Source: a virus. From it: a stretch of DNA of 26,392 nt. The position numbers were made by a program, and so were the translations under genes. The notes under the pieces are model-generated. The model saw only the letters and a list, made by a program, of their open reading frames with translations. It searched no databases and was not told where the DNA came from. Positions 327 to 26,392 of the stretch are shown here, piece after piece; position 1 is the stretch's first letter, and each line of letters starts with the position of its first letter. The stretch covers positions 1-26,392 of the IMG/VR virus record IMGVR_UViG_3300045988_023824. One strand, written 5' to 3'.

Positions 327-350
327 CTGTAACCTTTTTACTCATATTTG

Positions 351-377
351 GTACTAAGATAATATAAAAAAGTTACA
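351..377 (+). promoter_or_regulatory. Degenerate copy of the recurring intergenic motif (GTACT-N8-ATAAAAAAGTTACA)
   Basis: GTACTAAGATAATATAAAAAAGTTACA matches about 19 of 28 positions of GTACTTTGAGTGAGTAAAAAACTTGACA at 18732-18759. Like the other copies it is intergenic, plus-oriented and followed by a hairpin. Confidence 0.3.
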
Positions 378-380
378 TAT

Positions 381-407
381 AAAATAGGGAGTAAACCTCC
401 CTATTTT
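381..407. terminator. Intrinsic-terminator-like hairpin
   Basis: Perfect 11-bp stem AAAATAGGGAG / CTCCCTATTTT with loop TAAAC, flanked by A and T tracts, between TAA 324-326 and ATG 448. Confidence 0.6.
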
Positions 408-447
408 CATTAGCTACTAATATATAAAATAATATATTTTAACAAAA

Positions 448-936
448 ATGAATATTCAAGAATTAAAGTTCTCAAATTTAAGTGAGCTATTAAGAAAGTG
501 AGGAGATCTTATAATTTCTCTTTATAGACAGGAATTAGTTAAAACCAGATCTGATGACACTGGAGCATTAGGTAATAGTTTAAACTATATAGTTGAGACT
601 CAGGATGGAGACTATGAGGTTAATTTTAGCTTATTAGATTATTGAGAATATGTTGAAGAAGGCAGAGCTGCTGGTAAATTTCCTCCATTATCTGATATAA
701 AGAGTTGGATTAAAACTAAGCCAGTAATTCCAAGACCTTATAATGGCAAGTTACCTACTGTAGATCAACTTGCATATTTAATTGGAAGAAAGATACATCT
801 TCAAGGAACTCAAGGAAAACATCCACTTGCTAATACTCTAGAATATATAGAGAACAATTATATGGAACTTCTTGATGATGCTATAACTAAAGACTTACAA
901 GGACAAGTAGATTATTATTTATTTAAAGACTTTTAA
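448..936 (+). CDS. HK97 gp10-like tail-completion / head-tail joining protein, 162 aa (2 in-frame TGA)
   Basis: ATG 448, TAA 934-936, TGA at 499 and 643; checked codon by codon. DTGALGNSL ... LLDYWEYVEEGRAAGKFPP resembles the DTGxLrxS ... YaxyVEyGt signature of the HK97 gp10 family. Missing from the standard-code track because it is cut into three short pieces. Confidence 0.55.
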
Positions 937-9234: not shown

Positions 9235-9254
9235 AGTGAGTAAAATTTATGACA
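9235..9254 (+). promoter_or_regulatory. Variant copy of the conserved intergenic motif (AGTGAGTAAAATTTATGACA)
   Basis: Starts directly after TAA 9232-9234. Shares AGTGAGTAAAA...TGACA with the 18740 and 26169 copies and is followed directly by hairpin 9255-9298. Confidence 0.4.
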
Positions 9255-9298
9255 CACTACTATGTAAGTTGCTGATTATCAGTGCTTATATAGTAGTG
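9255..9298 (+). terminator. Long compound hairpin (possible terminator or RNA structure)
   Basis: The 14-nt arms CACTACTATGTAAG (9255-9268) and CTTATATAGTAGTG (9285-9298) pair with one G-U. The loop holds a nested palindrome, CTGAT T ATCAG. No clean U-tract follows. Confidence 0.4.
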
Positions 9299-9332
9299 CT
9301 ATGTCAAAATTTATTTATCTTAGATACAAATT

Positions 9333-9349
9333 TGAGTAAAAACTTGACA
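9333..9349 (+). promoter_or_regulatory. Copy of the conserved intergenic motif core (TGAGTAAAAACTTGACA)
   Basis: Identical to the 18742-18759 and 26171-26188 core apart from one fewer A. Lies 80 nt upstream of the head-module start (ATG 9429). Confidence 0.45.
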
Positions 9350-9428
9350 TTTGATAGTATATAAATATATAAAAATAAAAGATTGTAACAATATTACATT
9401 TTTAAAATAGCTTATATATTAATAAAAA

Positions 9429-10640: not shown

Positions 10641-11278
10641 TGTACCATTATATTTATGAAATTCAGCCTTTAATGCCTGGATGGGAAAACACTTACTATA
10701 TAGGCAAGCATAGTACTGATGAAGATCCATTTAATAATAGCTATGCAGGAAGTGGCACTATTCTTACTAATTACTATAGTAAATATGGCAAGATTAAAGA
10801 TGTTACTTACAGAAAAGTTATAATTGAATTTAATGATTCTTCAAAAGATAATGCTTTAAGAGAAGCTGATATTATAGGCGATTGTTATAACACCGATAAG
10901 AGATGTTTAAATCTTAAACCAGGAGGTTATGGAGGAATGACTCCAGAAATAGCTATTAAAATATCAGAATCTTGCAAAGGTCGTAATCCCTGAAATAAAC
11001 ACAAAACGGGAGTATATAATGCTGAAACTACAGAAAGACTTAAAAATATAGCTATAAATAGAGAGTTTACTTCAGAGACAAGAAAAAAGATGTCTGAATC
11101 TCATATAAATAAAGGTATAAAATCAATCATTATGCTAGATTTAGAAGGAAATATAATTAAAACTTATCCTTCAATTAAAAATGCTGTTTTAGATGGATAC
11201 TGTAAAAGCTCTATTCTTAGAGTATTAAACGGAAAATATAAACAGCATAAAGGTAAAATATTTAAGTATAACAATTAA
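10640..11278 (+). CDS. GIY-YIG homing endonuclease, 212 aa (1 in-frame TGA)
   Basis: Track ORFs 10640-10993 and 11090-11278 are co-phased, the gap has no TAA/TAG, and TGA is at 10991. HYIYEI...YYIGK (GIY...YIG), CLNLKPGGYGG, NUMOD3-like SETRKKMSESH, and a C-terminal DNA-binding tail ending KGKIFKYNN. Start overlaps the scaffold stop (TAATG). Confidence 0.8.
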
Positions 11279-11292
11279 AAAAATTTTTAAGT

Positions 11293-12195
11293 ATGGCAAA
11301 CCCCGTAATGACGAGTTTAACTAGTTACGTAGAACAGCGCAGGCTTCCATTGATAAAAGAGGCTGTATTAAAGGCTAAGAGTGCTTCGTTGTTCAATCTT
11401 CAAACTGACATCAAAACTAGTGCTGCTCTTAACCTGTTATCAACTGCTATTCAGTTTGGCGATGGCCTAGCTTGTGGTTGGGATGAAGCTGGAACTCAGA
11501 CTCTTTCTCAGAGAATTCTGACTACTGGTAATATTAAGATCAATATGGCATATTGTGATAAAGAGATGCTTAAATACTGGACTCAGTATCAAGTACGAGT
11601 AGCTGCTGGTCAGAAGACGCTTCCTTTTGAAGAGGATTTCGTAAATGCAGTAGTTGAGAACGTTAAGGCTGCTATCGAGACTGCTATTTGGCAGGGTGAT
11701 ACTACTTCTCAGACTAATAACCTGAAGTACTTTGATGGTCTGTTAAAGATCTTAAAAAATGCTGCTGGTACTGTTGATGTAACGATTACTGGTACTTCTG
11801 CTTATGATGACATTATGGCTGTTTATAACGCTATTCCTGAGAAGGTTCTGGATGGTGCTTCTATCTTAGTTGGTAGTGATACTTTCCGTAAATTTATCCA
11901 GGAGTTAGTTGCTAAGAACTACTACCATTATAGTGGTGAGAATCTTAATGGTGAGATTATGCTTCCTGGTTCGCAGGTTAAAGTAATCGCTGTTAATGGT
12001 CTTAATGGAACTGATAAGATTGTTGCTGGTCAGTTAGATAAGAACTTCTTCTATGGTTGCGATATGATGAACGATGAGGAGAAGTTTGAATTGTGGTATT
12101 CACAAGATTTCCGCGAATTTAGATTAGCTATTGAATTTAACGCTGGCGTACAGGTTGCATTCCCTGATGAGGTAGTTCTTGGTGCCAAAGCCTAA
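11293..12195 (+). CDS. Putative major capsid protein, 300 aa
   Basis: Intact ORF in the protease-scaffold-capsid position. Codon usage is visibly different and more G+C-rich (ggt/gct/cgt/cag), as expected for an abundant protein. Four TGG, no TGA. Confidence 0.6.
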   Translation: MANPVMTSLTSYVEQRRLPLIKEAVLKAKSASLFNLQTDIKTSAALNLLSTAIQFGDGLACGWDEAGTQTLSQRILTTGNIKINMAYCDKEMLKYWTQYQVRVAAGQKTLPFEEDFVNAVVENVKAAIETAIWQGDTTSQTNNLKYFDGLLKILKNAAGTVDVTITGTSAYDDIMAVYNAIPEKVLDGASILVGSDTFRKFIQELVAKNYYHYSGENLNGEIMLPGSQVKVIAVNGLNGTDKIVAGQLDKNFFYGCDMMNDEEKFELWYSQDFREFRLAIEFNAGVQVAFPDEVVLGAKA

Positions 12196-12233
12196 TTTCA
12201 ATAGAGTTTAACTTTAAATAAGATTGAAATTAT

Positions 12234-12758
12234 ATGGCTTGTTTAATAACTATCGCTGGTATTACCCTGGATTGCGAATCTTCGCTTGGTGGTATCAAAC
12301 AGGTATGGATTACTCAGTACGATAATGTTAAGAGTGTAACTGTAGATGATGAGACTAATCAAATCTCAGCTATTACTCTTGAAGAAGATGCTAAATGGTA
12401 TAATTACCAATTCCGCAAAGGTACTGGTTCTCTAACCTCAACATTGAACGTTGACGAAACTGCAGGAACCAACTATGTAAGTAATGAGCTTGCTCTTGTA
12501 TTTACAAAGATGGAGACTAAGAAAAGAATCGAGATTGCTGCTCTTTCTATTGGACAACTTGTAGTTGTTGTAGAAGATTCTAATGGCAAATACTGGTTCT
12601 TAGGAAAAGATGACTATGTAAGCGCTTCCGCTGGTACGGGTGTTACTGGTACTGCAAAAGGTGATCAGAACGCTTATACGCTGACTTTAGCTACTGACTC
12701 TGAATCATATCCTTATGAGTTGAGTGCAGAAGCTATCCAAAGCGTTGTAGGTGCTTAA
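12234..12758 (+). CDS. Abundant virion protein of unknown role, 174 aa (candidate tube/major tail or capsid-associated protein)
   Basis: Intact ORF with the same high-expression-like codon usage as the capsid gene, followed by a strong terminator. Three TGG, no TGA. Confidence 0.4.
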   Translation: MACLITIAGITLDCESSLGGIKQVWITQYDNVKSVTVDDETNQISAITLEEDAKWYNYQFRKGTGSLTSTLNVDETAGTNYVSNELALVFTKMETKKRIEIAALSIGQLVVVVEDSNGKYWFLGKDDYVSASAGTGVTGTAKGDQNAYTLTLATDSESYPYELSAEAIQSVVGA

Positions 12759-12770
12759 TAACAGAAAGAG

Positions 12771-12801
12771 GGGCGAGTATTAATTTACTTGCCCTTATTT
12801 T
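12771..12801 (+). terminator. Intrinsic terminator after the capsid block
   Basis: GGGCGAGTA (12771-12779) pairs with TACTTGCCC (12786-12794) with one G-U; loop TTAATT; followed by TTATTTTG. Confidence 0.65.
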
Positions 12802-12847
12802 GTTATATACCACATAATGAATAATTTATATTTTATAGAAAAATAAT

Positions 12848-15370
12848 ATGGCAAACGAAACTGAAAAGACAATTCTTCCTTATCTTAATGTCCTTGAAGT
12901 TGAAACAATAGATAAGTCAAATGTGACTAAAGTTATTGTTATTGACAAGGATGATGAAGTTAAGGTTATGGATGGTTCTCAGTTAGCTACTAATAGCTAT
13001 TTTGATCTTCAGGATAAACCTGAAATCAATGGCATTGAGTTAAATGGTAATATGACTTCAGAAGAGTTGGGATTAGCGTCATCTGAAGATATTGTTACTA
13101 TTAATTCTGAGTTAGAGCAAATAAAGAGTACTATTCCAAGTGCTGAAAATATTGATAATCAGATAACTGAACGATTAGCTGATTATCCAACTAAAGAAGA
13201 GGTTACAACTGAAATTTCAGATGCAGTTGCCAATAAAGCCGATAAATCTGAGATACCAACAAAAACTTCACAATTAACTAATGATAGTGGATTTATTAGC
13301 AGCTTAGATGGATATGCTACTGAAAAATGAGTTGAAGATAATTATCTTACAAAAGAAGCTGCTGAAAGTGCATTAAATTCTAAACAGAATAAATTAAACC
13401 AAGGTGACGGTATAGTAATTGAAGAGAATACTATTTCTGCAGATTATAATACTATTCGTAACAAACCATCTTTAAATGGAACTGAATTATCTGGAGCAGC
13501 TTCAATAGTACCTGCCATTAATATTCAATCAGTCCCATCTAAAGTTACTTTAGCTCCTGTATTTGGTAATCAAACTGGAGAAGCAGTTGAACTTCCAATA
13601 TATAATACAGAGACTAATCAAGCTGGTATTGTTAATGGTCCTCTATATGCACAATTAGCAGATAAATATACTAAAGCTGAAATTGATGCTTTAAATACAG
13701 CTATTAATAAAGAGATAGCTTCAAAACAGGGAACGCTTACAGCAGGAAAGAATATATCTATTATAGATAATGTAATCTCTGCTTTTGAGAATCATTTCTT
13801 ACTTAATTTAGATGAGAATGATCCTGTAAGACAGAAACATATCTATGACTTTATTAGAACTAATCTGGACTTCTATTTATTCTGCCAGATTACATATAAA
13901 GGTGATATTATAGTTATTCCTGTTGCAACTATTGAGCATCCTGAAACTATTGATTTATATGGCTATTATTTCCAAGATAATGGTGTATTAGTAGTTATTA
14001 ATGCAATCTTAGTAAATAATGGTAATATGACTGTTAAAGTTACTGAGGTTGATCTTACTAATAAAGGATATACTAAAGAAGAAGTAGATGCCAAACTTGA
14101 GGAAAAACAAGGAGTATTTACTCCACAAGCTCCATTAGCTTTTAATGAAGATAAATCCCAATTATCTGTAGATTTATCTGGATACCAACCAGTTGGTGAT
14201 TATGCTTTAAAGAGTGATATTCCAACTAAAGTTAGTGAGCTTACTAATGATTCTAACTTTGTAACTGAAGCAGAGGTTTCTGGAGATTTAGCAGGTAAAG
14301 CAGATAAGACTTATGTTGATGAGCAGCTTGCTACTAAACAGCCTGTAGGAGATTATGCAACAAAAACAGAACTTGCTGGTAAAGCTGATTCTTCTGTGGT
14401 AGAATCTTTATCTACTCAAGTAGCAACTAATACTTCAGATATATCAATTATTAAAACAAAACAAGAAGAAGATGGAGATAAGATTGATTCTCTTGATAAA
14501 GAGATGGCTACTAAGCAAGATTTACTTGTAAGTGGAACTAATATCAAAACAATCAATAGTCAGTCTTTACTTGGAGAAGGTAATATAGAAATTGAAAGTG
14601 GCTCTAATATTCCATTTCTATTTATAAATTCCACTACTCATCTTTCTGGAGATTTCGCTGCTGTTAAGAATGCTATAGCTAATAAAACACCATTTGAGCT
14701 TTATTATGTAAATATTCTAGGTTATGGTGATATAGCAGCTCCAGAAGTATGTTTTGTTTCAGGAGAAAATATTCAAGCTACTTTCCATTTTGAAAGTACT
14801 ACAGCTAATCATACTGTAGTTCAAACTACTATTACTCCAACTGGAGTATCAGCAGATACTAGTTATCATAGTTATCAAGAGCAATTAGTTAGTGGTACGA
14901 ATATAAAAACCATAAATGGACAGGATATTCTTGGTTCTGGTAACTTAGATGTTTCAGGAGGTGGAGGTACTACTGATTATAATCAATTGACCAATAAACC
15001 TCAAATCAATTCTGTTGAACTTAGTGGTAATAAGAGTCTTGAGGATTTAGGTATACCAACTAAGACATCTGAGCTTACTAATGATAGTGGCTTTTTAACT
15101 TCTATTCCTGATGAGTATGTTACAGAAACTGAATTAAATGCAGGATTAGGAAATAAACAAGACACTTTAGTTAGCGGAACAAATATTAAGACAGTTAATG
15201 GAGAAAGCTTGTTAGGTAGTGGAAATATAGATATTGAGAGTGTTTCTAATCCAGTTACTTATGGAAGTGGAACTCAACCACAAGTTCATACTATTCTTGT
15301 GGTAACTCAGTCTGAATATGATGCTATTTCAAGTAAAGATCCAAATACTCAATATTTAATTGTAGAGTAA
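12848..15370 (+). CDS. 840-aa tail fibre protein with repeated fibre motifs (1 in-frame TGA)
   Basis: Track ORFs 12848-13330 and 14027-15370 are co-phased, and 13331-14026 has no TAA/TAG (checked by codon). TGA 13328 is the only Trp codon in the gene. Three copies each of IPTK(T/V)S(Q/E)LTNDS(G/N)F, LVSGTNIKT(I/V)N..S(L/I)LG.GN(I/L) and NKP.(I/L)N..EL.G. Confidence 0.75.
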
Positions 15371-15371
15371 T

Positions 15372-16298
15372 ATGAATATTCGAGATAATTTAAAAGCTTT
15401 TTATGTAGGTAACAGACAAGGTACTGCCATTTATGTGGGCAGTACCAAAGTCTGGCCTATTGATCCTTGTAATCCTATAACCTTTATAGACCCAGTATTT
15501 GGAAGTCAAGTTAAAATACATTTATTAGATGATAAACCTGTAACGGATTGTAATATAGACAGTGTAAAAAGCTGATATTATCCAAGTCCTTCAAATGACT
15601 CTGCATTTACTGGTTCTGCTGTAGTTACTAACGAGGATTATAAAAAATTCAATGTTCCTGCATCTAATGATGATAATGTGGTATTTATGAGACTTTTTCA
15701 AAGTTGCGCCGATTTAACTACATTTGATACTGGAATGGTTGAAGGTGGAGAAGATAAATTAGGACTGTTATACAATATGGGCGGTTTTTATTGTACATTA
15801 CAAGGATGCACTTCATTAACTACTATTATAGGAGATTTTGATGGTTCTAAGATATATAATTATAACTGGATGTTTGGAAATTGTAGATCTTTAATTACGG
15901 CTCCAAATATAACATTTCCTCATAGGGATTATTTAGTAACTCATACAGTTAATGTAAGCAGATTATTTGATGGTTGTACTTCATTAACCACCATACCTTT
16001 ATATGATGCATATTCTTGGGAATATTTAAGTCTTACGTTTAATGGTTTATCTAATTTAGAGAATGTTGGAGGGTTTAAAGATATAGGAAAATGCTTTACT
16101 ACTAACTCCGTTGCTGGATTAAATTTTGAAGATAGCCCAAAGTTAACTAATCAATCAGTACAGAATATAATTAATAATTTAGCTACTCCAAGAGTATCAC
16201 TTGCTGGAGTTCTAAAACTTGCAGAGAATGTTTACAATTCATTAACAGAGGAACAAAAATCACAAATCACCAGTAAAGGCTGGTCAGTAACATACTAA
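15372..16298 (+). CDS. 308-aa BspA/DUF285-type leucine-rich-repeat protein, probable receptor-binding protein (1 in-frame TGA)
   Basis: Track ORFs 15372-15575 and 15678-16298 are co-phased, with TGA at 15573. Repeats FQSCADLTTF, LQGCTSLTTI, FGNCRSLITA and FDGCTSLTTI. The C-terminus LTEEQKSQITSKGWSVTY is paralogous to the end of 17719-18708. Confidence 0.6.
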
Positions 16299-16299
16299 T

Positions 16300-16521
16300 A
16301 TGAAAGTTGAAATTAAAGAAAAGTATCAAGTAGTTAAGCCTGAAGATAGTATGCTTCTGACTAACTATAAAGACGAAATGGATATTAAAGGGTATAACTC
16401 ATTTAAAGAGTGTATTTGTCCATTAGATTGCGATTTAACTCATCTAAGAGAAATATCTCTGGAACAAGACAGGGTTTATAAAGAACAAGCTGAGAAGGCT
16501 ATTGAAGAATCTCTTAAATAA
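16300..16521 (+). CDS. Small acidic protein, 73 aa (possibly a fibre assembly factor)
   Basis: Intact ORF packed tightly between two fibre-cluster genes. No recognisable motif. Confidence 0.35.
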   Translation: MKVEIKEKYQVVKPEDSMLLTNYKDEMDIKGYNSFKECICPLDCDLTHLREISLEQDRVYKEQAEKAIEESLK

Positions 16522-16528
16522 TAAAACT

Positions 16529-17203
16529 ATGATTATATTAAAGAATACTAAGAATACTCAGACCTTCTATGTTAGTAAGAAATGCGGTATTGAGACAGCT
16601 CAGCTTCCTGTTGGTTCTTATACAAAGATTGAAGCAGATGCGAGATTTCAACCTAAAGGTAATTACATTTCCGAAGATAAGGCTGTTGAAATAATTGATG
16701 AGCAAATTAATTCTCAGTTGGATGTTATACTTGAACCTAAGTTAGAGCCAATTAAGAATGATATTACTGAATTAGAAACATCTAAGATGGAAGTATTTCA
16801 AGTAAACTCTCCTATGTCATTTAATAGAGAGGGTGAAGATTTACATCTATCTATTGATCTTTCTAACTATGCTCTCAAGTCAGATATTCCAAGTACTGAG
16901 GATTTTGCTACTAAAGAAGAGCTTGCATCTGTTGAAAATGAAGTTGGAAATAATTCTTCTAAGATTACAGCTATTGAAAGCAAGCAAGAAGAGGATGAAC
17001 TAAAGATTGATGCATTAGATAAGGAAGTTGGGACATTAGATGCAAATAAAGCAGACAAATCGGAACTATCTAATTATGTAACATTAGAAGTATATAATGC
17101 TAAGGTTTCAGAATTAGAAGCTGCTATTCAAGCTTTACAGGCACAAATCGGAACTATCTCAACTACTCTTGATACAATTAATGGTGAAATTCCAAATGAA
17201 TAG
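16529..17203 (+). CDS. 224-aa coiled-coil tail-fibre protein
   Basis: Track ORF 16502-17203. I prefer ATG 16529 because it does not overlap the upstream stop at 16519-16521. [19 protein letters not shown] is paralogous to IKTKQEEDGDKIDSLDKEM in 12848-15370. Ends in TAG. Confidence 0.6.
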
Positions 17204-17717
17204 AGTATTAACAAATTATCCTAACTATAGTGTATCTTCTACAGGAGATGTATATAGTAACCCATTGACTTTTAAAGATTCTATTGGAAGAACCAGAAAA
17301 CAAATACATAAAAAGCTAAAACAGCATATAGATAAATATGGCTATAATTATGTAATTCTAGTATCTGGCTTAGATAAACCTAAAGCTATTAAAGTTCACA
17401 GACTAGTAGCAGAAGCATTTATTCCAAATCCTGACAATCTACCATATGTTAACCATATAAATGAAAATAAGACAGATAATAGGGTAGAAAATTTAGAATG
17501 ATGTGATGCAAAGTATAATAATACATATGGAACTAGAATAAATAGATGTATTGATAAAATTAGTAAACCTGTAGGGCTATTTATTAATGATTTACTAGTT
17601 AAAACATATAAAAATGCAATTGAAACATCAATAGATGGGTATACTCATAGTAGAGTTATAGATTGTCTTAAAGGAAGAACAGACACTTATAAAGGGGTAA
17701 AATTTAAATATATCTAA
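17196..17717 (+). CDS. HNH homing endonuclease (NUMOD4-like N-terminus plus HNH_3-type core), 173 aa (1 in-frame TGA)
   Basis: ATG 17196 overlaps the fibre stop (ATGAATAG). [14 protein letters not shown], then [35 protein letters not shown] followed by TGA 17499 at the conserved W of NLEW. Continues 72 codons to TAA 17715-17717, ending KGVKFKYI. Confidence 0.85.
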
Positions 17718-17718
17718 T

Positions 17719-18708
17719 ATGGCAAATACAATTTCTGATAAATTAACGTATCTTGAAGGTACTAAGAGTGCCATTAAAGATGCTATTGTAGCTAAAGGTG
17801 TTGCTGTATCAGATTCCGATACCTTTAGAAGCTATGCAGATAAGATAGGACAGATTTCTGGAGGTGAGGTGTTTGATGTTACTAAAACAGGATTAACGTT
17901 TGCTTATTGTAATATGCATCATAGTCAATTTGGGAAACTAAATTGAACTATAAATCCAAGTACTGCAGATATTTCATATTTATTTAGCAATAGTAACTTA
18001 CCTGATAGCTATATTGATTTAGGTAGTAAATTAGATACTTCTGTTTCTTATTTAGCAAAAGAGAGTTTTAAACAAGCTAATATTCACCAAATAGCAATAA
18101 ATTCAGGTCAACAGTTTAATAACCCTTCAAGTATGTTTGAAAGCACTATATCTCCAAATTCAACTCTGCAAGATATAGTTTTTAATATAACAGAATCATA
18201 TATTCCTTTTGTTTTATATTTTACAAACATAAGTACTACTGGTACAATTACAGTAAATATTAAAAATGGAATTAATGCATCACTAGTTTACTTTATGTAT
18301 GGATATAATGGCAACGAAATATGTGATAAAATAGTATTCAATGGATATAATTCTAGTACATTATCATTAGAGCAATTCTTTTGGACTGGTAGTACAAATC
18401 TAACTAAAATTCCAGAAATAGATTTGACAGCTGTTGATAACTATACATTTAGCGAATTAATAACAGGTGGAGAAATGACTTCTATAACTACATTTGGAGG
18501 GATTACAAATTTAAAGGTAGATCTTAATTTGCAGTGATTACCAAATCTTAATGCTGAGTCAGTCGATAATATCTTAAATAAAGCAAATGATTTAACAGGA
18601 AATCCTACTCAAACTATTACATTTAATTCTGCTGTTTATAATACCCTTACTGAGGAACAGAAATCATTAGCTACATCTAAAAACTGAACTTTAGCAAGTT
18701 CAAACTAA
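17719..18708 (+). CDS. 329-aa fibre/receptor-binding protein, second DUF285/BspA-like paralogue (3 in-frame TGA)
   Basis: Track ORFs 17719-17946 and 18133-18537 are co-phased and the gaps were checked. TGA at 17944,18535,18685; TAA 18706-18708. The N-terminus MANTISDKLTYLEGTKSAIKDAIVAKGV is fibre-like. C-terminus VYNTLTEEQKSLATSKNWTLASSN. Confidence 0.55.
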
Positions 18709-18723
18709 TTGTCAGTTTTTATT

Positions 18724-18759
18724 TTTTCTTAGTACTTTGAGTGAGTAAAAAACTTGACA
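18724..18759 (+). promoter_or_regulatory. Conserved 36-nt intergenic element, copy 1 (TTTTCTTAGTACTTTGAGTGAGTAAAAAACTTGACA)
   Basis: 32 of 36 identical to 26153-26188, with a 20-nt perfect core (18740-18759 = 26169-26188). Intergenic and plus-oriented. Confidence 0.55.
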
Positions 18760-18785
18760 TTAAAGGAGGCTTAGGTCTCCTTTAA
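18760..18785. terminator. Terminator-like hairpin directly after the conserved element
   Basis: TTAAAGGAGGC / GTCTCCTTTAA (one G-U), loop TTAG, followed by TTATTTTAAT. Confidence 0.6.
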
Positions 18786-18861
18786 TTATTTTAATACATT
18801 AGTAAATTGGTTTATATTTTAAGAAAAAGATATGTAAAACTAATGTAAATTGCTGTAAAAT

Positions 18862-19254
18862 ATGAATTATACTTTATTAATGCAAAATACAACTACTAAA
18901 GAAGTTTATATATTTAATCTTGAAAATCAGAATTATGCTGAAAATATCTACTATAAGTTTGATATTACATTATCTGATGATATGCCTGATGGTGAATATC
19001 AGTATATTCTGTTTAGTAATCCAAATAAACTTGAAGTAATTGTAGATGTAAATAATCCTATGCAGTCAGAGCTATATGGTAATCCAGTTATTCTGGTAAC
19101 TTATGAAAATACTCTTACTACAGGAACACAGATATTAGTTGCTGGTAAACCTATACCTGTATTGAGTTCAGGACTAATAAGAGTTGGAGATTATCAGAAT
19201 AATAAATACCAATACGATAAACAAAACAAATATACGGCTTATGAGCGAAAATAA
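18862..19254 (+). CDS. Hypothetical protein, 130 aa
   Basis: Intact standard-code ORF and the first gene after the 18724-18785 element. No motif recognised. Confidence 0.45.
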   Translation: MNYTLLMQNTTTKEVYIFNLENQNYAENIYYKFDITLSDDMPDGEYQYILFSNPNKLEVIVDVNNPMQSELYGNPVILVTYENTLTTGTQILVAGKPIPVLSSGLIRVGDYQNNKYQYDKQNKYTAYERK

Positions 19255-20323
19255 AACAAAAGTACAATTAAGTGCAATTGATCCTGTTGTAGTGTCAAAT
19301 TTAGTACTTCCTGTAGAATCGAGAAAAAGGGGTTCTGATTGGATTTCTTGGGGTGAAGATAATCGCTATCCTGTATATTTATGGGATCTATATTTAAATG
19401 TAGCTACTCTTCAATCTATCATTAATGGGACTGCTGACTTTATTGTTGGTAATGATGTTATATGTAATGCACCAGGATTTGAAGTAACTGTAAATAAGAA
19501 AGGTGAGACTATTATGGATATTATGCGTAAAGTATCTAAAGATAAGATGATTTTTGGAGGATATGCTTTACAAATAATTAGAGATATGTTAGGTAGAGTT
19601 TCAGAGATCTATCATCTTGACTTTATGAAGATTCGTTCTGATGAAAAGAATGAAGTATTCTATTATGCCGATGATTGGTCTGCTTGGTCTATTAAAGCTA
19701 TCAAATATCCAAAATTTAATTATTCAGATGATAATCCTACAAGTGTTGTTTATAATAAGGGCTATATAACAAGAAAAGTATATCCAGTCCCTGTTTATGG
19801 TGCAGCTATCCTATCTTGCGAAACTGAGAAGAATATTAATGAGTTCCATCTAAATTCTCTTCATAACGGATTTATGGGTAATATTATCATTAACTTTAAT
19901 AATGGACAGCCTACAGACGAAGTTAAAGAAGAGATTGAGATGAATATTAATGAGAAATTCTCAGGATTTCAAAATGCTGGTAGAGTTCTTATTTCATATA
20001 ATGATGATGAAACAAATAAGACTACTATTGAGCGTTTAGATTCTGATGATTTTGATGAGAAATATAGTGCTTTATCTGATAGAACAAGAGAACAGATATT
20101 CTGTGCATTTAGAGCTAATCCTAACTTATTTGGAATAAACTCTGATTCTACTGGATTTAATGAGCAAGAGTTTAATTCATCATTTAAACTATATAATAGA
20201 ACGATGATTAAACCTATGCAAAAAGAGATTTGTGATACATTTGACAAAATCTTTGGTATGAAGAATTCTATCACAATTACCCCATTTAGCTTAGATACAG
20301 CTGATTCTAAAATAGTTGAATAA
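19241..20323 (+). CDS. Putative portal protein, 360 aa
   Basis: Track ORF 19184-20323. I prefer ATG 19241 (MSENKTKV), which overlaps the upstream gene by 14 nt. GSDWISWGEDNRYPVYLWDLY...LQSIINGTADFIVG resembles N-terminal portal motifs of Bacteroidota phages. Five TGG, no TGA. Confidence 0.55.
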   Translation: MSENKTKVQLSAIDPVVVSNLVLPVESRKRGSDWISWGEDNRYPVYLWDLYLNVATLQSIINGTADFIVGNDVICNAPGFEVTVNKKGETIMDIMRKVSKDKMIFGGYALQIIRDMLGRVSEIYHLDFMKIRSDEKNEVFYYADDWSAWSIKAIKYPKFNYSDDNPTSVVYNKGYITRKVYPVPVYGAAILSCETEKNINEFHLNSLHNGFMGNIIINFNNGQPTDEVKEEIEMNINEKFSGFQNAGRVLISYNDDETNKTTIERLDSDDFDEKYSALSDRTREQIFCAFRANPNLFGINSDSTGFNEQEFNSSFKLYNRTMIKPMQKEICDTFDKIFGMKNSITITPFSLDTADSKIVE

Positions 20324-20324
20324 T

Positions 20325-21008
20325 ATGGAACAAATGGATTTTAGAAATGTACTTCTAATTAGTGAAGATTATATCAAATCTGAATCTAACTTAGACAATA
20401 ATGTTTCTGGTAAATATCTTCAGTCAGCAATTAAACTTGCACAAGATATTGAGCTTCAGTCATTAATTGGAACTAAGCTCTTAGAAAAGATTCAGAAATT
20501 AGTAATTGATTGGAAAGATCCAAATAAACCAGTTCATCCAATAGAACCTCCTATTTATGATCCTACTTCAATAGATGACCCAGAAAATCATAGATATAAA
20601 GAATTGCTAGATTACTATATTCAGCCTTATTTACTTTATCAAGTATTAAGTGAGATTACTATACCCATCTCATTTAAGCTGAGTAATTTTGGGGTTATGA
20701 GGACTGATGATGAGAAAGATTTAACTTCTGATATTAGCCAAGTTAATCTTATTAAGAAATATTATAGAGATAAAGCAGATTTCTTTAAAACGAGATTACA
20801 AAATTGGGTAATTACATATTATAATGATTTTCCTGAATTGTATTCTTATAAACCTCTTAAAGATATGTATCCAAATATGTATTCAAGTTCATCTTGTACT
20901 ATTTGGTTAGGTGGAGCTAGAGGTAAAGGTTGGAGATATAATTCTTGTGAAGGTCCTCTTCAAAGAGCTTATGATTTTCCTTCAAGTAACAATAAAAAGA
21001 GTAAGTAA
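20325..21008 (+). CDS. Putative head-tail connector/adaptor protein, 227 aa
   Basis: The track start at 20316 is TTG, so I prefer ATG 20325 just after the portal stop. The position after the portal and LISEDYIKSES...YLQSAIKLAQDIELQSLIGTKL resemble gp6-like connector N-termini. Weak call. Confidence 0.4.
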   Translation: MEQMDFRNVLLISEDYIKSESNLDNNVSGKYLQSAIKLAQDIELQSLIGTKLLEKIQKLVIDWKDPNKPVHPIEPPIYDPTSIDDPENHRYKELLDYYIQPYLLYQVLSEITIPISFKLSNFGVMRTDDEKDLTSDISQVNLIKKYYRDKADFFKTRLQNWVITYYNDFPELYSYKPLKDMYPNMYSSSSCTIWLGGARGKGWRYNSCEGPLQRAYDFPSSNNKKSK

Positions 21009-21010
21009 TT

Positions 21011-21436
21011 ATGACCTACTATGAGATAATTAGCAATTTAAAAGCTTGTGCATTAGAAGAGCCAAACATCAATTTTGTAGGAAGTAAAGACATTTATGAG
21101 TTAAATAGCTTACCAACTATTGAGTATAATGTGTTCTATATAACACCTAATACTTTTAGTGTAGATGAAGATACTATTACTTACTCTTTAAACCTATACT
21201 TCGTATCAAGATGGGATGAGACTGATAACAACCAATTGGAGGAACAGTCAGCAGGTATGCTTGCACTGCAAAATATAATTAATCGTTTTAATAACCTATA
21301 TCCAGAAGTTGAAATAGCTTATCCTTTAATTTATACTCCATTCTATCAAAAGTTCAAAGATATTACCTGTGGAGTGTTTGTTAGAGCTGATTTCCAAGTT
21401 GACAACACATTAGGCTTATGTCAAGACAGTATGTAG
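21011..21436 (+). CDS. Hypothetical neck/head-completion protein, 141 aa
   Basis: Intact ORF ending in TAG. The functional guess rests on position only. Confidence 0.3.
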   Translation: MTYYEIISNLKACALEEPNINFVGSKDIYELNSLPTIEYNVFYITPNTFSVDEDTITYSLNLYFVSRWDETDNNQLEEQSAGMLALQNIINRFNNLYPEVEIAYPLIYTPFYQKFKDITCGVFVRADFQVDNTLGLCQDSM

Positions 21437-22002
21437 TTTATATTCATACTTTTCCAAATGGTAAAAGATATGTTGGATTAACCACTCAGTCAGTAAATAG
21501 TAGATGAAGAGGTGGAGAAGGATATAAAGATCAATTTGTTTACAGACCAATTAAAAAGTACGGTTGAAACAATATTAAACATACTATTTATTATGTAAAT
21601 AGTGAATCGGAAATGAAATATCTTGAAAAATACTTCTTTAGCTATTATAATACTACAGATTTAAGATTTGGTTATAATAGAACTGACACAAGTAATCATC
21701 CTATAGTTTCTAATGAAACTAAAGTTATTATTTCTGAATTTGCTAAAACTAGAATAGGAAATAAAAATCCATTTTATGGGAAGCATCATTCAGAAGAAAC
21801 TAAGGAATTAATACGCAAGAAAAATCAAAACTATGGAACTAAAGCTATTAGTCAATACACTTTAGATGGAAGATTTATAAAATCTTATAAAAGTATAAGA
21901 TCAGCAGCAAGAGAGTTAAACATAACTTCTTCTTTAATATCTTCAGTTTTAAGTGGCAGACAAAAACAAACTAAAGGATATACCTTTAAGTATAATATGT
22001 AA
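21418..22002 (+). CDS. GIY-YIG homing endonuclease, 194 aa (2 in-frame TGA)
   Basis: ATG 21418 overlaps the upstream gene by 19 nt. MSRQYVVYIHTFPNGKRYVGLTTQSVNSRWRGGEGY...KKYGWNNIKH, with TGA at 21505 and 21565. Co-phased with track ORF 21613-22002, which carries NUMOD3-like GKHHSEETKELIRKKN and the tail TKGYTFKYNM. Confidence 0.85.
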
Positions 22003-22658
22003 TGGAAAATAAATTAAATTGGTTTGGTAAAGTATTAGAATGGGTTGATAAATATGGATTACTAAAGATATTTAAAGCAGGGATTGGATTAATATTTATA
22101 TCCTATGTAATGGTTATTACACTTAATCCCTCTATTGTTTATAATAAGGTTGTAACCTATATTGAACAAACTCACAATTCTAAAACTATTGCAAGAAATG
22201 AAGCAACTTTAAAGATTAAATATAAGCTTAAAGAATTGCTTCAAAGCACAAATGCTGATAGAGCTTGGGTTATTGAATATCATAATGGAACTACTGGATT
22301 AGGAGGACTTCCATTTACCTATGGAGTAATGAATGCAGAGGAAGTAAAACCAGGAATAAGACCTGTAAGTAGCCATTATAAAGACTTCCTCTTATCTGAC
22401 TATACTTCAATTATAGAGTTTTCTAAGAATGATGGATGGTTTGGTAATATAGATAGTTTAGAAGCAGATGATCCAAGATTATATTATGCATTTAAATCCA
22501 ACAGAGTGAATGAAATAGCAGTATTTTATTTAAAGACTGAGGATAAAGATATTGGCATTTTAGGTTTGTCATTCTGTGATACACCTATGCCTTATGATAC
22601 TTGAGTACATCTAAGAAGAGCTGGAATACAGATAAGTATAATTTTAAATAAAATATAA
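22002..22658 (+). CDS. 218-aa N-terminally membrane-anchored protein of unknown function, first gene of the lysis cassette (1 in-frame TGA)
   Basis: Start overlaps the previous stop (TAATG). TM segment GLLKIFKAGIGLIFISYVMVITL. TGA 22602 extends the protein by 18 codons to TAA 22656-22658, one nt before the holin-like ATG. Confidence 0.45.
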
Positions 22659-22659
22659 T

Positions 22660-22818
22660 ATGAAATATTGGTTAAAATATGTAATAGTAGTTGTACTATT
22701 AATGATTGCATTTTTGTTAATTAAAGTAATTCCTTTTTGGATTACTATTAGTTTAACGTTATTTGGAGCAGTGTGCTATTTTATTTACCTTTATAAACTG
22801 CATAATTCATATAAATAA
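22660..22818 (+). CDS. Holin-like small membrane protein, 52 aa, two predicted TM helices
   Basis: MKYWLKYVIVVVLLMIAFLLIKVIPFWITISLTLFGAVCYFIYLYKLHNSYK. Below the track's size cut-off. Its stop overlaps the endolysin start (TAATG). Confidence 0.6.
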   Translation: MKYWLKYVIVVVLLMIAFLLIKVIPFWITISLTLFGAVCYFIYLYKLHNSYK

Positions 22819-23270
22819 TGAAGTATTTCACACTCGAAGAATTAACAAGATCTGATACTGCTTCAATTAAGCATATAGATAACACTCCAGATGAGAGTAT
22901 AACAGAGCACCTGATAGAGTTGGTCGAGAAGCTTTTAGACCCAATAAGAGAGAGATGGGCAAAGTATTGTGATGACAATCAGCTTGGCAATGCAGGCATC
23001 AGGATTTCCTCTGGTTTTAGAAATAAGGAGCTTAATAAAGCAGTAGGAGGATCTTCAACTTCTGCTCATTTAACAGGGTATGCAGCAGATATATCTCCAA
23101 TTAATGGTAATATGAAAGTATTCCAAAGTTGGATTGCTGAAGCTATTGAAGAATTAAATTGAGACCAGTTGATATATGAAAAGCCTAAGAATGGTATAGC
23201 AAGTTGAATACACTTGGGATTAAAGAATAAAGACGGGATGCAAAGACGACAGAAATTTACTATTATATAA
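22818..23270 (+). CDS. Endolysin, zinc peptidase M15 (VanY / L-Ala-D-Glu peptidase type), 150 aa (2 in-frame TGA)
   Basis: FTLEELTRSDTA...IDNTP, then SSGFRNKELNKAVGGSSTSAHLTGYAADI (H-x6-D). TGA 23160 and 23205 are followed by WIHLG (third His). TAA 23268-23270. Confidence 0.85.
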
Positions 23271-23839
23271 TGTTTTACTATTGTTATAAAATAATTTTAA
23301 CTGCAGGTACATTAAGAGGCAAGTATTATATTGGGAAAAGGATTTATAGAGGTAAAGACATAAATAAAGATCCATATAAAGGATCAGGAAGGATTATTAC
23401 TAATTATTACAAAAGATTCCCTAATGCATACCAAAAGATTATTTTGGCAACTTGCACTAATGCAGATGAATTATCTAAATTAGAATACAAACTAATTGGA
23501 GATAAATGGGACACTGATCCTATGTGTTTAAATTTGAAACCTGGAGGAGAAGGAGGCAATTACGGAGTCAAATTTAATTCTGAATGAAAGAAGAAACTGT
23601 CTAATTCTAATAAGGGAAAGAAACATAATTGCCCAGAATCTTGAAGAGATAAAGTAGATGCTCATAACAAACAAAGATGTCGTAAAGTAGCTCAGTATGA
23701 TTTAGATGGTAATTTTATTCAAGAGTATGAAAGTTGCACAGAAGCAGCCAAATCTGTAGGAACTGATAGAGGAGCTATTAGTAGAGTATGTGGTGGATTA
23801 GCAAATACAGCTAAAGGATTCAAGTGAAGATATGTTTAA
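23270..23839 (+). CDS. GIY-YIG homing endonuclease, 189 aa (3 in-frame TGA), paralogue of 10640-11278
   Basis: YCYKI...YYIGK, YKGSGRIITNYY and CLNLKPGGEGG are shared with 10640-11278. TGA at 23585,23642,23825. C-terminal tail AKGFKWRYV. Start overlaps the endolysin stop (TAATG). Confidence 0.8.
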
Positions 23840-23847
23840 TAAAAAAG

Positions 23848-23874
23848 AAAAGGAGGGCAAATAACCCTCCTTTT
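23848..23874. terminator. Bidirectional intrinsic terminator between the convergent gene blocks
   Basis: 10-bp stem AAAAGGAGGG / CCCTCCTTTT with loop CAAATAA. The A-tract on one side and T-tract on the other give a U-run on either strand. Confidence 0.75.
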
Positions 23875-23877
23875 TGT

Positions 23878-24018
23878 TTATTCCATTATCTCAAATAATT
23901 TCTCATCTTTAGGTATTAATTCTCCAGTTTGTAAATCTACTAAGAATTTACTATTTTCGGGAATTACATAAACGTAATTTACTCCATTTAAGCATAATTT
24001 ATATGTAAAGTACTTCAT
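23878..24018 (-). CDS. Small hypothetical protein, 46 aa
   Basis: MKYFTYKLCLNGVNYVYVIPENSKFLVDLQTGELIPKDEKLFEIME. Its start lies 1 nt after the upstream stop; ends in TAA next to the terminator. Confidence 0.4.
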   Translation of the reverse strand: MKYFTYKLCLNGVNYVYVIPENSKFLVDLQTGELIPKDEKLFEIME

Positions 24019-24318: not shown

Positions 24319-24337
24319 AATTAAAATATTTTAATAA

Positions 24338-24388
24338 ATGTCTATTTTTACTCAACTAATGTATATAGATAAAAATAAAAATAGACAT
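24338..24388. repeat. 12-bp perfect inverted repeat (ATGTCTATTTTT ... AAAAATAGACAT) with a 27-nt spacer
   Basis: Arms at 24338-24349 and 24377-24388, just downstream (minus sense) of the helicase TAG stop and upstream of the small-ORF cluster. Confidence 0.5.
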
Positions 24389-24389: not shown

Positions 24390-26108
24390 CTAATTTTTAA
24401 AGACATACTTTTTACCTATAATAGTATATCCATAAGATCTGTTTCCATTCACTGATTTTTTAGTTACCTTAACTTCATAATATTTTGTAATATCAGTAGC
24501 TTTAGCATTAGTTTTATTAACTAAATCATAAGCTTTTTGTAGTATCTTTTTAATATCAGTATTAGAATACCACATACCTAAAGTTATATCTTTATTAAGT
24601 TTATTTGCTACTTTATTATCTACAGATTTATCTGAAGTTTTAATAAGTTCATCTTTTATTTTAGTAATACAGTATTTTAGAGTGGCCATTTTATTGAATC
24701 CAAGTTTAGTAATAGCATCCATTAACCAAGGGTATTTAATAAGAGCATCATCTAATTTTGGGGTGTTTACCTTATATAAGGTTTCATATTCCTCTCTTAC
24801 TTCTTTAATTATATCTTTAAATGCTTTTGTTTTAGTATTTAGATCTATTTTTATAGAATTATCATATTGTTCTACTACTTTATTAAATCCTTTATTAATA
24901 TATTCATTAGAAAGATTAGCTCTAGCAGAATACAGTCCTCTGGATACTTTAAAATTAAATAAATCGATCTTAGCCATATTAGGGTCAAATTCAAATACAT
25001 CATCCCAATTTAATTTAATGTATGCATCAGAAGTAAATTCTCTAAGTTTCTTTTTAGCTATCTCTGGAAGTTTATTGTATGCTTCTACAGCAATTTTAGT
25101 TTCTTCAATATTCTGGATATTAAGCTTTTTAAATTCTTCATAAGATATATCAGCATATCTTGTTGTAGAATAAATGTGAGTTATCCAATTAATATATTTA
25201 CTATTTCTAATTCTACCAGCAATCTGCTGTATAGAAGTTGATATATCAAGTAATGTATTAGCTTTACTTGGATCAGATATAATTATTATCCTTCCATTTT
25301 CATCATAAATATCAGAACCTTCAAATACAGTTGAAGTTAATAAGTTTATTTTCTTAGGTTCATCTAAGACTGTTGAATTAGGAATTGACAGTTTAGTTTT
25401 ATTGTTTTTGGAATATATAACTCTGGTATTATTAGATGTTAATTTGGCTTTCTTAATAAGGTTCTTTATAAAGTCTACTGAATTAACGAATATGTAGGCG
25501 TTACCTTCAACCTGTCCGTTTAAAAATCCATTTATAAGTTTAATAGTAGAAGCTTCTACATTATCGCATTTAACAGTTTGTACTTTTACATCTATAACAT
25601 CATCCCATTCCTGCTTTACTAATTCTAAATCTTTTAATTCATCTAATACAAACTCTTCCTCTAAAGGTGTTGCGGTCATAAATGTAAAATTACCAAATAA
25701 TTTATAATATTTAAGCACTGATTGAATAGCAGAGCTTCTAAAGCTATACTGATTAAAGAGAATATGATATTCATCAATTAAAATGCTAAACTCTTTAGGA
25801 TTAATTGCAGAAATAACTTTATAAAGAGAATCATATGTAACAATAATTTTAGGACATTTAACACTATCTACGTAATCTTTAATCTCTTTAATAGTAACTC
25901 CAGCATAAACTCCAAATATCTTCTCAGTACGTCTTTCATTTGGATATTGTTGAAGTTTATTTTCAACTAAGCTAGTAAATGGAACACAAATAACATAAGG
26001 CTTATTACATTCAATTGCCATTGAAGTTCCTCCACATCCAACTTTTCCTTTATCAAATAAACAGTTAGTTGGCAACTCATTAATCAAATTGTTTAAATAT
26101 GTTTTCAT
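24390..26108 (-). CDS. SF2 DExH-box helicase-like protein, 572 aa
   Basis: Intact standard-code ORF ending in TAG. Motif I-like GKVGCGGTS, motif II LIDEYH, motif III MTATP, motif VI QQIAGRIRN. Five TGG, no TGA. Confidence 0.7.
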   Translation of the reverse strand: MKTYLNNLINELPTNCLFDKGKVGCGGTSMAIECNKPYVICVPFTSLVENKLQQYPNERRTEKIFGVYAGVTIKEIKDYVDSVKCPKIIVTYDSLYKVISAINPKEFSILIDEYHILFNQYSFRSSAIQSVLKYYKLFGNFTFMTATPLEEEFVLDELKDLELVKQEWDDVIDVKVQTVKCDNVEASTIKLINGFLNGQVEGNAYIFVNSVDFIKNLIKKAKLTSNNTRVIYSKNNKTKLSIPNSTVLDEPKKINLLTSTVFEGSDIYDENGRIIIISDPSKANTLLDISTSIQQIAGRIRNSKYINWITHIYSTTRYADISYEEFKKLNIQNIEETKIAVEAYNKLPEIAKKKLREFTSDAYIKLNWDDVFEFDPNMAKIDLFNFKVSRGLYSARANLSNEYINKGFNKVVEQYDNSIKIDLNTKTKAFKDIIKEVREEYETLYKVNTPKLDDALIKYPWLMDAITKLGFNKMATLKYCITKIKDELIKTSDKSVDNKVANKLNKDITLGMWYSNTDIKKILQKAYDLVNKTNAKATDITKYYEVKVTKKSVNGNRSYGYTIIGKKYVFKN

Positions 26109-26152
26109 AATTTTAATAATTTAAATAGTTAAAGTTTTTGTCAATATTTTTA

Positions 26153-26188
26153 TTTTCTTACTACTAAAAGTGAGTAAAAAACTTGACA
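26153..26188 (+). promoter_or_regulatory. Conserved 36-nt intergenic element, copy 2 (TTTTCTTACTACTAAAAGTGAGTAAAAAACTTGACA)
   Basis: 32 of 36 identical to 18724-18759. Plus-oriented although the adjacent gene is on the minus strand. Followed 16 nt later by hairpin 26205-26223. Confidence 0.55.
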
Positions 26189-26204: not shown

Positions 26205-26223
26205 GGCAGGACTTTCACCTGCC
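26205..26223 (-). terminator. GC-rich hairpin that reads as an intrinsic terminator or attenuator on the minus strand
   Basis: GGCAGG / CCTGCC stem with a 7-nt loop. On the minus strand it is followed by ACTTTTTGAATC; on the plus strand no U-run follows directly. Confidence 0.45.
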
Positions 26224-26251
26224 TAGAATTATTAGTTTTAGTTTCATACTG

Positions 26252-26283
26252 CAAATATAATACATAAAAATTAAATTTCCAAA
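26252..26283 (-). promoter_or_regulatory. Bacteroidota-type promoter P1 (minus strand): -33 TTTG, 20-nt spacer, -7 TATATTTG
   Basis: Plus strand shows CAAATATA at 26252-26259 and CAAA at 26280-26283. The reverse complement is TTTG-N20-TATATTTG, an exact match to TAnnTTTG. Confidence 0.6.
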
Positions 26284-26373: not shown

Positions 26374-26392
26374 TAATTTTAAGAAAAAAAAA

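Follow-up and report, generated by a model that had tools for sequence, protein, structure and literature searches.

A clade-specific, hairpin-forming inverted repeat at the gene-block junctions of an uncultivated, TGA-recoded tailed phage

Intergenic regulatory repeats and cassettes are familiar features of phage genomes, and several described systems are reminiscent of the element reported here. Phages T7 and SP82 carry intercistronic RNase III processing hairpins, which are related, imperfect and bulged structures of ~50 nt that lie between genes, are mostly co-oriented with transcription and have a stem of about two helical turns. At the nut sites of phage lambda (boxA + boxB) and the put sites of HK022, a linear box stands beside a stem-loop and works in an orientation-dependent manner in transcripts upstream of terminators. 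The start-associated sequences (SAS) and extended SAS (ESAS) of cluster K mycobacteriophages and the stoperators of cluster A are clade-specific intergenic motifs at the starts of genes or units, some with inverted repeats; to our knowledge, the function of SAS and ESAS is still unclear. Finally, the PeSL (promoter early stem-loop) cassettes of T4-type phages consist of a stem-loop, an AT-rich region, sigma-70 -35/-10 boxes and a Shine-Dalgarno (SD) sequence; these composite intergenic repeats place a stem-loop terminator and a promoter before the next gene, at cassette borders, and remain constant amid differing flanking genes (PMC2839356, PMC4122927). Here, we describe a repeated element of ~50 nt in IMG/VR record IMGVR_UViG_3300045988_023824 (positions 1 to 26,392, hereafter the window), which is a new, clade-specific variant among such repeats and cassettes.

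The first-pass annotation of the window had described a 36-nt motif at 18724-18759 and 26153-26188. This motif is the 3' half of an imperfect inverted repeat of ~50 nt that can form a hairpin, the left arm having been missed. The two sites are indeed identical at 32 of 36 positions (the similarity runs to 62 nt at 81 %), and their exact 20-nt core, AGTGAGTAAAAAACTTGACA, occurs exactly twice in the window, against 0 expected in shuffles; the repeat is far beyond chance. Five copies (A-E; Table 1) are present, three on the plus strand and two on the minus strand, and all of them are intergenic when genes are read with TGA as tryptophan, in keeping with the earlier statement that none lies inside coding sequence. 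The accompanying claim that all copies are plus-oriented fails for A and E. What had been listed as a degenerate plus-strand site at 351-377 is a good minus-strand copy (copy A; nhmmer, 31.5 bits on the minus strand versus 3.1 on the plus; covariance model, 31.8 versus 21 bits), and copy E had gone unnoticed. The site TGAGTAAAAACTTGACA at 9333-9349 was recovered as part of copy B, while the related site at 9235-9254 (R') matches 16/20 positions of the core but reaches only 2.4 bits with the nhmmer profile, which is not significant. The five copies score 26-45 bits with this profile and the rest of the window ≤4.2 bits, of which only the absence of further copies is informative because the five were part of the profile seed.

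The layout is rigid over 36 distinct variants from relatives: TGTxxx, 17-18 T-rich nt, (T)AC, 6-7 nt, GAGTAAAAA(A) and yyyACA, with 15-17 nt from GAGTAAAAA to the end of the element; some variants contain TAAATTTG where others have TAAAAGTG. The two terminal hexamers can pair with each other and change jointly (outer-arm changes CAA/TTG, AAC/GTT and CTA/TAG), giving three arm types, TGTCAA/TTGACA, TGTAAC/GTTACA and TGTCTA/TAGACA, each found at several sites and in several genomes. When the arms were anchored at the element ends, 86.7 % of cells were paired versus 72.8 % in shuffles (0/500), the covariation score was 0.339 versus 0.108 (0/500) and both sides had changed in four pairs. A covariance-model alignment, which is biased towards the structure to which it was fitted, gave 93.5 % of cells paired versus 44-56 % for slid partners and two-sided changes in eleven cells versus 2.1 in shuffles (0/500). 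As the sequences are related, these shuffle counts are not probabilities.

Folding differs between the strands. The sense strand folds better than the antisense strand in 33 of the 36 variants (means -10.6 versus -6.2 kcal/mol), as it does in the four window copies folded on both strands (for copy C, -10.7 versus -6.1 kcal/mol). Minimum-energy folds have 15-20 bp with a 1-2-nt bulge, in agreement with the imperfect duplex of ~20 bp expected of an intercistronic site of the RNase III type. The inner pairs, among them two U.G wobbles retained in 32-33 of 35 rows, are invariant and therefore uninformative on pairing.

Approximately 55 relatives were found in IMG/VR, and seven contigs were rebuilt, six of them in full; four rebuilt contigs have overlapping ends, indicating circular assemblies. 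Each complete relative (~30-34 kb, TGA = Trp) has 4-5 copies, which occupy homologous junctions and never coding sequence, bearing out the earlier expectation that the motif would recur, always between genes, in related genomes. Sites A-D are filled in every complete relative. The 17-mer GAGTAAAAAACTTGACA occurs at most four times per complete relative and on one strand only, with no other match at ≤3 substitutions. In the retrieved relatives with ≤68 % capsid-protein identity, no copy was detected by fuzzy matching, nhmmer or the covariance model, and these distant relatives keep the same unit architecture without the element, which is clade-specific. Other matches to the 17-mer in IMG/VR are alike in those 17 bases only and were dismissed as chance, so we rejected the presence of the motif in other phage clades.

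At a typical junction, the order is stop codon, 1-2 nt, element, GC-rich terminator-like hairpin, TATATTTTAnnAAAAA box and next ATG. Copies A, C and E start 1-2 nt past a co-oriented or adjacent stop codon, with the next ATG ~20 to 102 nt away, and terminator-like GC hairpins with U-runs lie 0-3 nt downstream of A and C. Copy E begins 2 nt past the TAG stop (24390-24392) of a 572-aa minus-strand gene and finishes 21 nt short of the next minus-strand ATG (24317). Copy D, which no co-oriented gene precedes, is located 30 nt from where the 572-aa gene starts. The four hairpins of the first-pass annotation were all recovered with their spacings (folds -10.5 to -23.8 kcal/mol), and their sequences are unrelated to one another, as had been noted. 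A G.U pair of the hairpin at copy C becomes A-U in relatives, and relatives retain a hairpin at the copy D site, in some of them of different sequence.

Taken together, the covariation, the strand asymmetry, the abutment on stop codons and the adjacency of terminators favour an element that is folded in the transcript. We therefore put forward, tentatively and with more doubt than confidence, an RNA-level stem-loop at unit junctions that would serve in processing, 3'-end formation or control of read-through. The element would form the transcribed end of the unit before it (at A in relatives, and at B, C and E) and, at D, part of a leader instead; the RNA would fold into a 15-20-bp stem of A.U and G.U pairs in which the 3' strand (GAGUAAAAA...ACA) and the UAC at the tip are conserved, and this hairpin would act in cis at the junction. 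Its most likely role would be that of a double-strand-specific processing signal or of a signal defining 3' ends, comparable to the sites that RNase III cuts between cistrons in T7 and SP82; alternatively, it may be a factor-recognised signal that sets stopping versus read-through at the adjacent terminator. The likeness to the T7 and SP82 sites extends to their number, size, imperfect pairing, intergenic position and prevailing orientation, and here too the hairpin would stay on the 3' end of the upstream message. In contrast to those sites, the stem is nearly all A.U and G.U, one strand is far more conserved than the other, cleavage is putative, the orientation of two site types is opposite to that of the neighbouring gene and a terminator directly follows A and C.

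Several observations weigh against a stem-loop acting in the transcript. RNAalifold returned no consensus structure on a plain MAFFT alignment because the arms are misaligned there, and the structure emerges only with arms anchored or model-fitted, among related sequences. Conservation is much stronger on the 3' strand than on the 5' strand, a bias that a plain hairpin does not need and that suggests sequence-specific recognition, possibly of DNA. One lineage has the left arm TTTAAAG at A and D with the right arm unchanged, leaving 5/7 pairs, and several variants join TGTCTA to TTGACA, breaking one pair. Single-copy fold z-scores are modest (-1.7 to -3.5), and in copy B the preferred partner of the left arm is the half-copy R' upstream rather than the right arm of the same copy. 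The inverted orientation of copy A is shared by at least six relatives, yet the conserved boxes are kept; copy D has no co-oriented gene upstream, so its sense RNA may never be made; and the terminator immediately downstream makes a processing site at A and C look redundant.

The B site has the most elaborate predicted structure. Over 9228-9360, R' and the left arm of copy B pair around the hairpin at 9255-9298 (-42.6 kcal/mol, z -6.75), and half-copy, hairpin and left arm together form a duplex of ~40 bp that offers the left arm alternative partners. This hairpin is missing in relatives of the L068 type, in which the element sits straight after the stop codon. Element and GC hairpin form two adjacent hairpins (z -3.8 and -5.6). 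Competition between an antiterminator and a terminator at A and C was rejected, as both hairpins fold side by side, sharing only 1 nt, and are not mutually exclusive. At site A of one relative (L134), the loop of the GC hairpin is flipped (GGGAG-TAAAT-CTCCC versus GGGAG-ATTTA-CTCCC), a loop inversion between inverted arms of the kind also seen at copy A.

The first-pass annotation had offered a phage-specific promoter or a box-plus-stem-loop RNA site as explanations; the RNA site is the better fit, while the promoter is weakened by the covariation, the adjacent terminators and a separate box at unit starts. This box, TATATTTTAnnAAAAA (0-1 mismatch), stands just ahead of the first ATG in the units starting at 448, 9429 and 12848; for the ATG at 18862 the distance is 42 nt, and the box there is conserved in relatives though the neighbouring sequence has diverged. 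In L112, a relative without the element, it occurs at least five times, always after a terminator-like hairpin, and a relative lacking copy E has TATATTTG 5 nt upstream of the ATG corresponding to 24317. The start-associated box is likely a late promoter or a translation-start signal, in which case leaders would be very short or absent, and the TATATTTTAnnAAAAA / TATATTTTA boxes are more probably the promoters of the late blocks than is the element. The late boxes have no -33 TTTG, and some phage factor is probably needed for their use. Two ATG-TAA mini-ORFs (open reading frames; 18832-18837 and 18844-18849) lie between the TATATTTTAAGAAAAA box and the ATG at 18862 and are conserved in relatives.

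We consider it unlikely that the element itself is a late promoter for a phage-encoded sigma-like factor, with the transcript beginning in or just after the conserved 17-mer. Its geometry could be TGTxxx, 17-18 nt and TAC, as in promoters of the sigma-70 family or of extracytoplasmic function (ECF) sigma factors, or else a -10-like TGAGTAAAAA with transcription initiating at the terminal ACA, a proposal of equally low probability. For comparison, the Bacillus subtilis SigX promoter is TGTAAC-N17-CGAC. Every late block and one minus-strand unit are indeed preceded by a copy, in most cases with matching orientation; an invariant 17-mer at rigid spacing is reminiscent of phage-specific promoters; and copy A, though inverted, still reads TGTAAC-N18-TACTAA on the plus strand. 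Yet such a promoter would have terminator-like hairpins 0-3 nt downstream of it at A and C, conservation would be strongest in the transcribed leader rather than in the -35/-10 boxes, and arm covariation with G.U asymmetry would be unexpected and indicates a folded strand. Copy A is inverted, copy E is dispensable, being missing in some close relatives, and both the unit starting at 12848 and L112 lack the element but have a TATATTTTA box before their ATGs. The lack of a -33 TTTG in the late start boxes counts in favour of a promoter read by a phage factor, as does a pair of sigma-like ORFs found in relatives.

These ORFs, of 102 and 84 aa, are encoded in the 5.6 kb of the genome outside the window, a region that in relatives contains divergent early promoters, small ORFs, homing endonucleases, the terminase and the ORF pair. 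They are always neighbours, with a slight overlap at 13186-13732 of relative 097310 (L137), and together look like a small sigma factor divided over two polypeptides, one corresponding to region 2 and the other to region 4. The pair recurs across the 26 fetched stretches spanning the region, except that two of these have one of the ORFs only; in one stretch (L138) an insert splits the pair. The 84-aa ORF matches Pfam HTH_50 above the cut-off, Sigma70_r4_2 below it and PHROG sigma-factor families weakly (E 2e-3 to 6e-3). The 102-aa ORF has a region-2-like motif by eye and is named 'RNA polymerase sigma factor' in one NCBI third-party annotation (TPA) record; it has no Pfam or PHROG match, its homologue search returned clade members only and Foldseek with its AlphaFold model (predicted local distance difference test score 73) returned nothing significant (best E = 5; SigW second, probability 0.15), so its sigma assignment is weak and tells against the promoter. 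No phage RNA polymerase was recognised in the ~30-kb genome either: no ORF of the window or the missing 5.6 kb matches such a family, and the 726-aa and 1146-aa proteins, which match no family, could at most hide a very divergent enzyme.

The element may instead act as double-stranded DNA, serving as an operator or upstream activating site of a phage regulator such as the 84-aa helix-turn-helix (HTH) protein, although we assign this a low probability. The regulator would activate when bound upstream of the late boxes and, no more probably, would repress at D, where the element separates the early leftward promoters from the 572-aa gene. The closest operator analogues are the phi29 p4 sites (CTTTTT-N15-AAAATG) and the P2 Ogr sites (TGT-N12-ACA). 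An operator would work independently of orientation, which suits the inverted copy A and the position of D; it would also account for the symmetry of T-tract and A-tract and the invariant TGT...ACA ends, for late boxes without a -33 element and for the intergenic cassette at C, which is conserved as a whole at ~90-92 % versus 68-78 % for the flanking coding DNA, and the phage does encode an HTH protein. However, three arm types coexist in one genome and their arms change together, which suits base pairing and not the half-sites of a homodimer; the conserved boxes CTTAGTAC and GAGT are asymmetric; and ~40 to 100 nt, with a terminator in between, separate the element from the presumed start point. 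The conservation of one strand, the inversion of copy A and the position of D keep both the promoter and the operator alive.

The element could also be a selfish or recombination-prone palindromic repeat, either resembling repetitive extragenic palindromic (REP) sequences or miniature inverted-repeat transposable elements (MITEs) or forming part of a PeSL-like repeat, that would have spread into the few intergenic gaps on offer and would have at most incidental effects (weak termination, or a crossover point for module exchange). We regard this as quite unlikely, though the restriction to one sub-clade, with no element in relatives at ≤68 % capsid identity, and the variable presence of copy E keep it alive. 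Copy E is present in some close relatives and missing where the 572-aa gene is another allele. Other relatives have a plus-oriented copy at A between identical flanks, so that both orientations occur there, the same arm families are found at different sites and the genes flanking A vary around a constant element plus hairpin. Against this, the inspected flanks show no target-site duplications, the annotated ORFs include no transposase or REP-associated tyrosine transposase (RAYT), none of the complete relatives has an empty site among A-D, the conserved boxes are retained in diverged genomes and breakpoints between genomes are mostly away from the elements. The lack of consistent flanking duplications and of a transposase or RAYT likewise set the element apart from the REP/MITE-like mobile palindromes as a class, and a recombination hotspot was rejected because BLAST breakpoints fell mostly inside genes.

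The element also differs from each of the other systems introduced above. It shares with PeSL cassettes the composite organisation, border position and constancy amid differing genes; in contrast, it has an extra 50-nt A/T-rich inverted repeat ahead of the GC stem-loop, its presumed promoter box is not sigma-70-like, there is no SD sequence and breakpoints lie mostly off the element. The general arrangement of nut and put sites is also present, and the first-pass annotation had proposed a nut-like antitermination site. However, boxB is conserved in nut, whereas the downstream hairpins here are unrelated in sequence and share no boxB-type hairpin, so the element is not nut-like in the strict sense; copies stand at unit ends rather than just after promoters, one is inverted and no N-like or Q-like antitermination protein was identified among the annotated ORFs, where small ORFans could hide one. 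The element is like SAS, ESAS and stoperators in being clade-specific and intergenic, and unlike them in sequence, host phylum and spacing; SAS lie 3-8 bp before start codons, closer to the TATATTTTA box than to the 50-nt element.

Further classes were tried and rejected. As stated at first pass, the element is not a sigma-70 promoter (TTGACA-N16-18-TATAAT): no -10 box follows TTGACA at A, C or D, the -10 position falls in or near the GC hairpin at C, D and the relatives' plus-oriented A and only B has TATAAA at 18-nt spacing. Neither is it a Bacteroidota sigma-A promoter (TTTG-N19-21-TAnnTTTG), again as first stated, since it never has a -33 TTTG; the only two full matches to the consensus in the window lie outside it on the minus strand (26252-26283 and 26342-26373). 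A promoter for a single-subunit or virion RNA polymerase (T7-, N4- or crAss-like) finds no matching polymerase. An intrinsic terminator was rejected given the A.U/G.U stem without U-run, the terminator scan picking the adjacent GC hairpins instead. A mimic of clustered regularly interspaced short palindromic repeats (CRISPR), such as an RNA anti-CRISPR or a solitary repeat unit, was rejected because no pair of 17-mers 40-70 nt apart occurs in 241 million metagenome records, and a tiny tRNA because the loop has no UCA. In Rfam 15, including its CRISPR direct repeats (CRISPR-DR), no family reached threshold, and the sole match at E ≤ 1 was to sraA, below threshold and away from the element (23784-23882).

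Table 1. Features of the element and its surroundings in the window
Feature	Position	Strand	Remarks
Copy A	328..377	-	TGTAAC...GGTTACA on minus strand; inverted relative to flanking plus-strand genes; 1 nt from TAA stop 324-326
Copy B	9302..9349	+	TGTCAA...CTTGACA, one A fewer; nhmmer 29.1 bits; covariance model 44.2 bits
Copy C	18710..18759	+	TGTCAG...CTTGACA; nhmmer 44.5 bits; covariance model 76.1 bits; 1 nt past TAA stop 18706-18708
Copy D	26139..26188	+	TGTCAA...CTTGACA; nhmmer 45.1 bits; covariance model 60.3 bits; fold -12.1 kcal/mol, z -3.5
Copy E	24339..24387	-	TGTCTA...TAGACA; perfect 12-bp outer stem; fold -14.8 kcal/mol; covariance model 40.1 bits
R' half-copy (3'-arm-like)	9235..9254	+	AGTGAGTAAAATTTATGACA, 16/20 versus core; directly after TAA stop of tape-measure-like gene
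GC hairpin beside copy A	381..407	+	Then TTTTC; terminator-like; fold -13.6 kcal/mol
Long hairpin between R' and copy B	9255..9298	+	Fold -23.8 kcal/mol; no U-run after
GC hairpin directly after copy C	18759..18786	+	Then TATTTT; found by terminator scan; fold -15.6 kcal/mol
GC hairpin 16 nt past copy D	26205..26223	.	Fold -10.5 kcal/mol; terminator score on minus strand
Unit boundary without element	12769..12842	+	Terminator-like hairpin 12769-12796; box TATATTTTATAGAAAA 12827-12842; ATG 12848
Start-associated box, unit A	433..448	+	TATATTTTAACAAAAA, exact match to TATATTTTAnnAAAAA; ends at ATG 448
Start-associated box, unit B	9413..9428	+	TATATATTAATAAAAA; abuts ATG 9429
Start-associated box, unit C	18813..18828	+	TATATTTTAAGAAAAA, exact match to TATATTTTAnnAAAAA; upstream of ATG 18862
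Box-related site	24321-24330	-	Listed among start-associated boxes
Plus-strand block 1	448-9234	+	Neck protein, two large proteins without family match, tape-measure-like protein
Plus-strand block 2	9429-18708	+	Prohead protease, scaffold-like, capsid and fibre-like proteins
Plus-strand block 3	18862-23839	+	Portal to endolysin
572-aa helicase-like gene	24390-26108	-	Small ORFs come after

The window covers ~26.4 kb of the ~30-34-kb circular genome of an uncultivated tailed phage. Long genes appear only when TGA is read as sense, merging stop-to-stop ORFs, and TGA positions align in divergent relatives mostly to Trp (25) and Tyr (14), hence our reading of TGA as Trp. The genes at 939-3119 and 3122-6562 contain 7-8 in-frame TGAs each; the 572-aa gene has none, while most other genes, including early ones, contain some. 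No tRNA gene, suppressor tRNA included, was found in the window or the complete relatives. An SD sequence precedes 0 of 25 genes and the early region has TTTG-N20/21-TAnnTTTG promoters, which suggests a host of Bacteroidota type. GenBank phages gave neither a nucleotide nor a capsid-protein match, and the terminase matched only unrelated GenBank phages at <30 % identity, pointing to no cultured relative or host. Only two distant relatives were found in GTDB genomes, on phage-sized contigs of metagenome-assembled genomes labelled Azospirillum sp. CAG:239 and Bacteroidaceae, for which the host call is unreliable; the fetched part of the 148-kb contig 175865 is entirely phage and shows no host flank.

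By eye, three ORFs (10640-11278, 21418-22002 and 23270-23839) appear to be free-standing GIY-YIG homing endonucleases and one (17181-17717) an HNH endonuclease, interspersed with structural and lysis genes at a density unusual for a 30-kb genome, and relatives carry further endonuclease-like ORFs in the early region (HNH-like by eye; one T5orf172 match by Pfam). Two 52-nt repeat units (26238-26289 and 26328-26379, starts 90 nt apart; also 25677-25704) each contain a minus-strand TTTG-N20-TATATTTG, matching the Bacteroidota promoter consensus and directed to the 572-aa gene; they are probably early promoters, but could alternatively be origin iterons. The window begins with T9 (1-9) and ends with A9 (26384-26392), which may be an artefact of assembly or window cutting rather than phage ends. 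The peptide motif IPTK.S.LTNDSGF is repeated in the 840-aa fibre-like protein (13253-13294, 14218-14266 and 15052-15100), and the 308-aa and 329-aa proteins have a similar C-terminal segment in common.

A further proposal, very improbable as a whole, is that the element forms the cis half of a hitherto undescribed late-gene switch in these SD-less, TGA-recoded and probably Bacteroidota-infecting phages. A small phage protein or the two-polypeptide sigma-like factor would read the 3' strand and UAC tip of the nascent RNA or of an extruded DNA hairpin, polymerase would pass the terminator or start beyond it and the tail, head and lysis blocks would open in order.

Phages of this kind are known from metagenomes only, and their gene timing is so far undescribed. 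In this clade, a short, recurrent and highly conserved signal marks the unit borders; together with the start box and a possible split sigma factor, it allows the transcription units to be mapped in a concrete and testable way. Should the element turn out to act as an RNA switch or as a promoter read by a phage factor, it would offer an entry point to late-gene control in gut phages that lack SD sequences and have recoded stop codons, and a useful component for their engineering. A mere processing hairpin or selfish palindrome would be nothing out of the ordinary in phage intergenic DNA.

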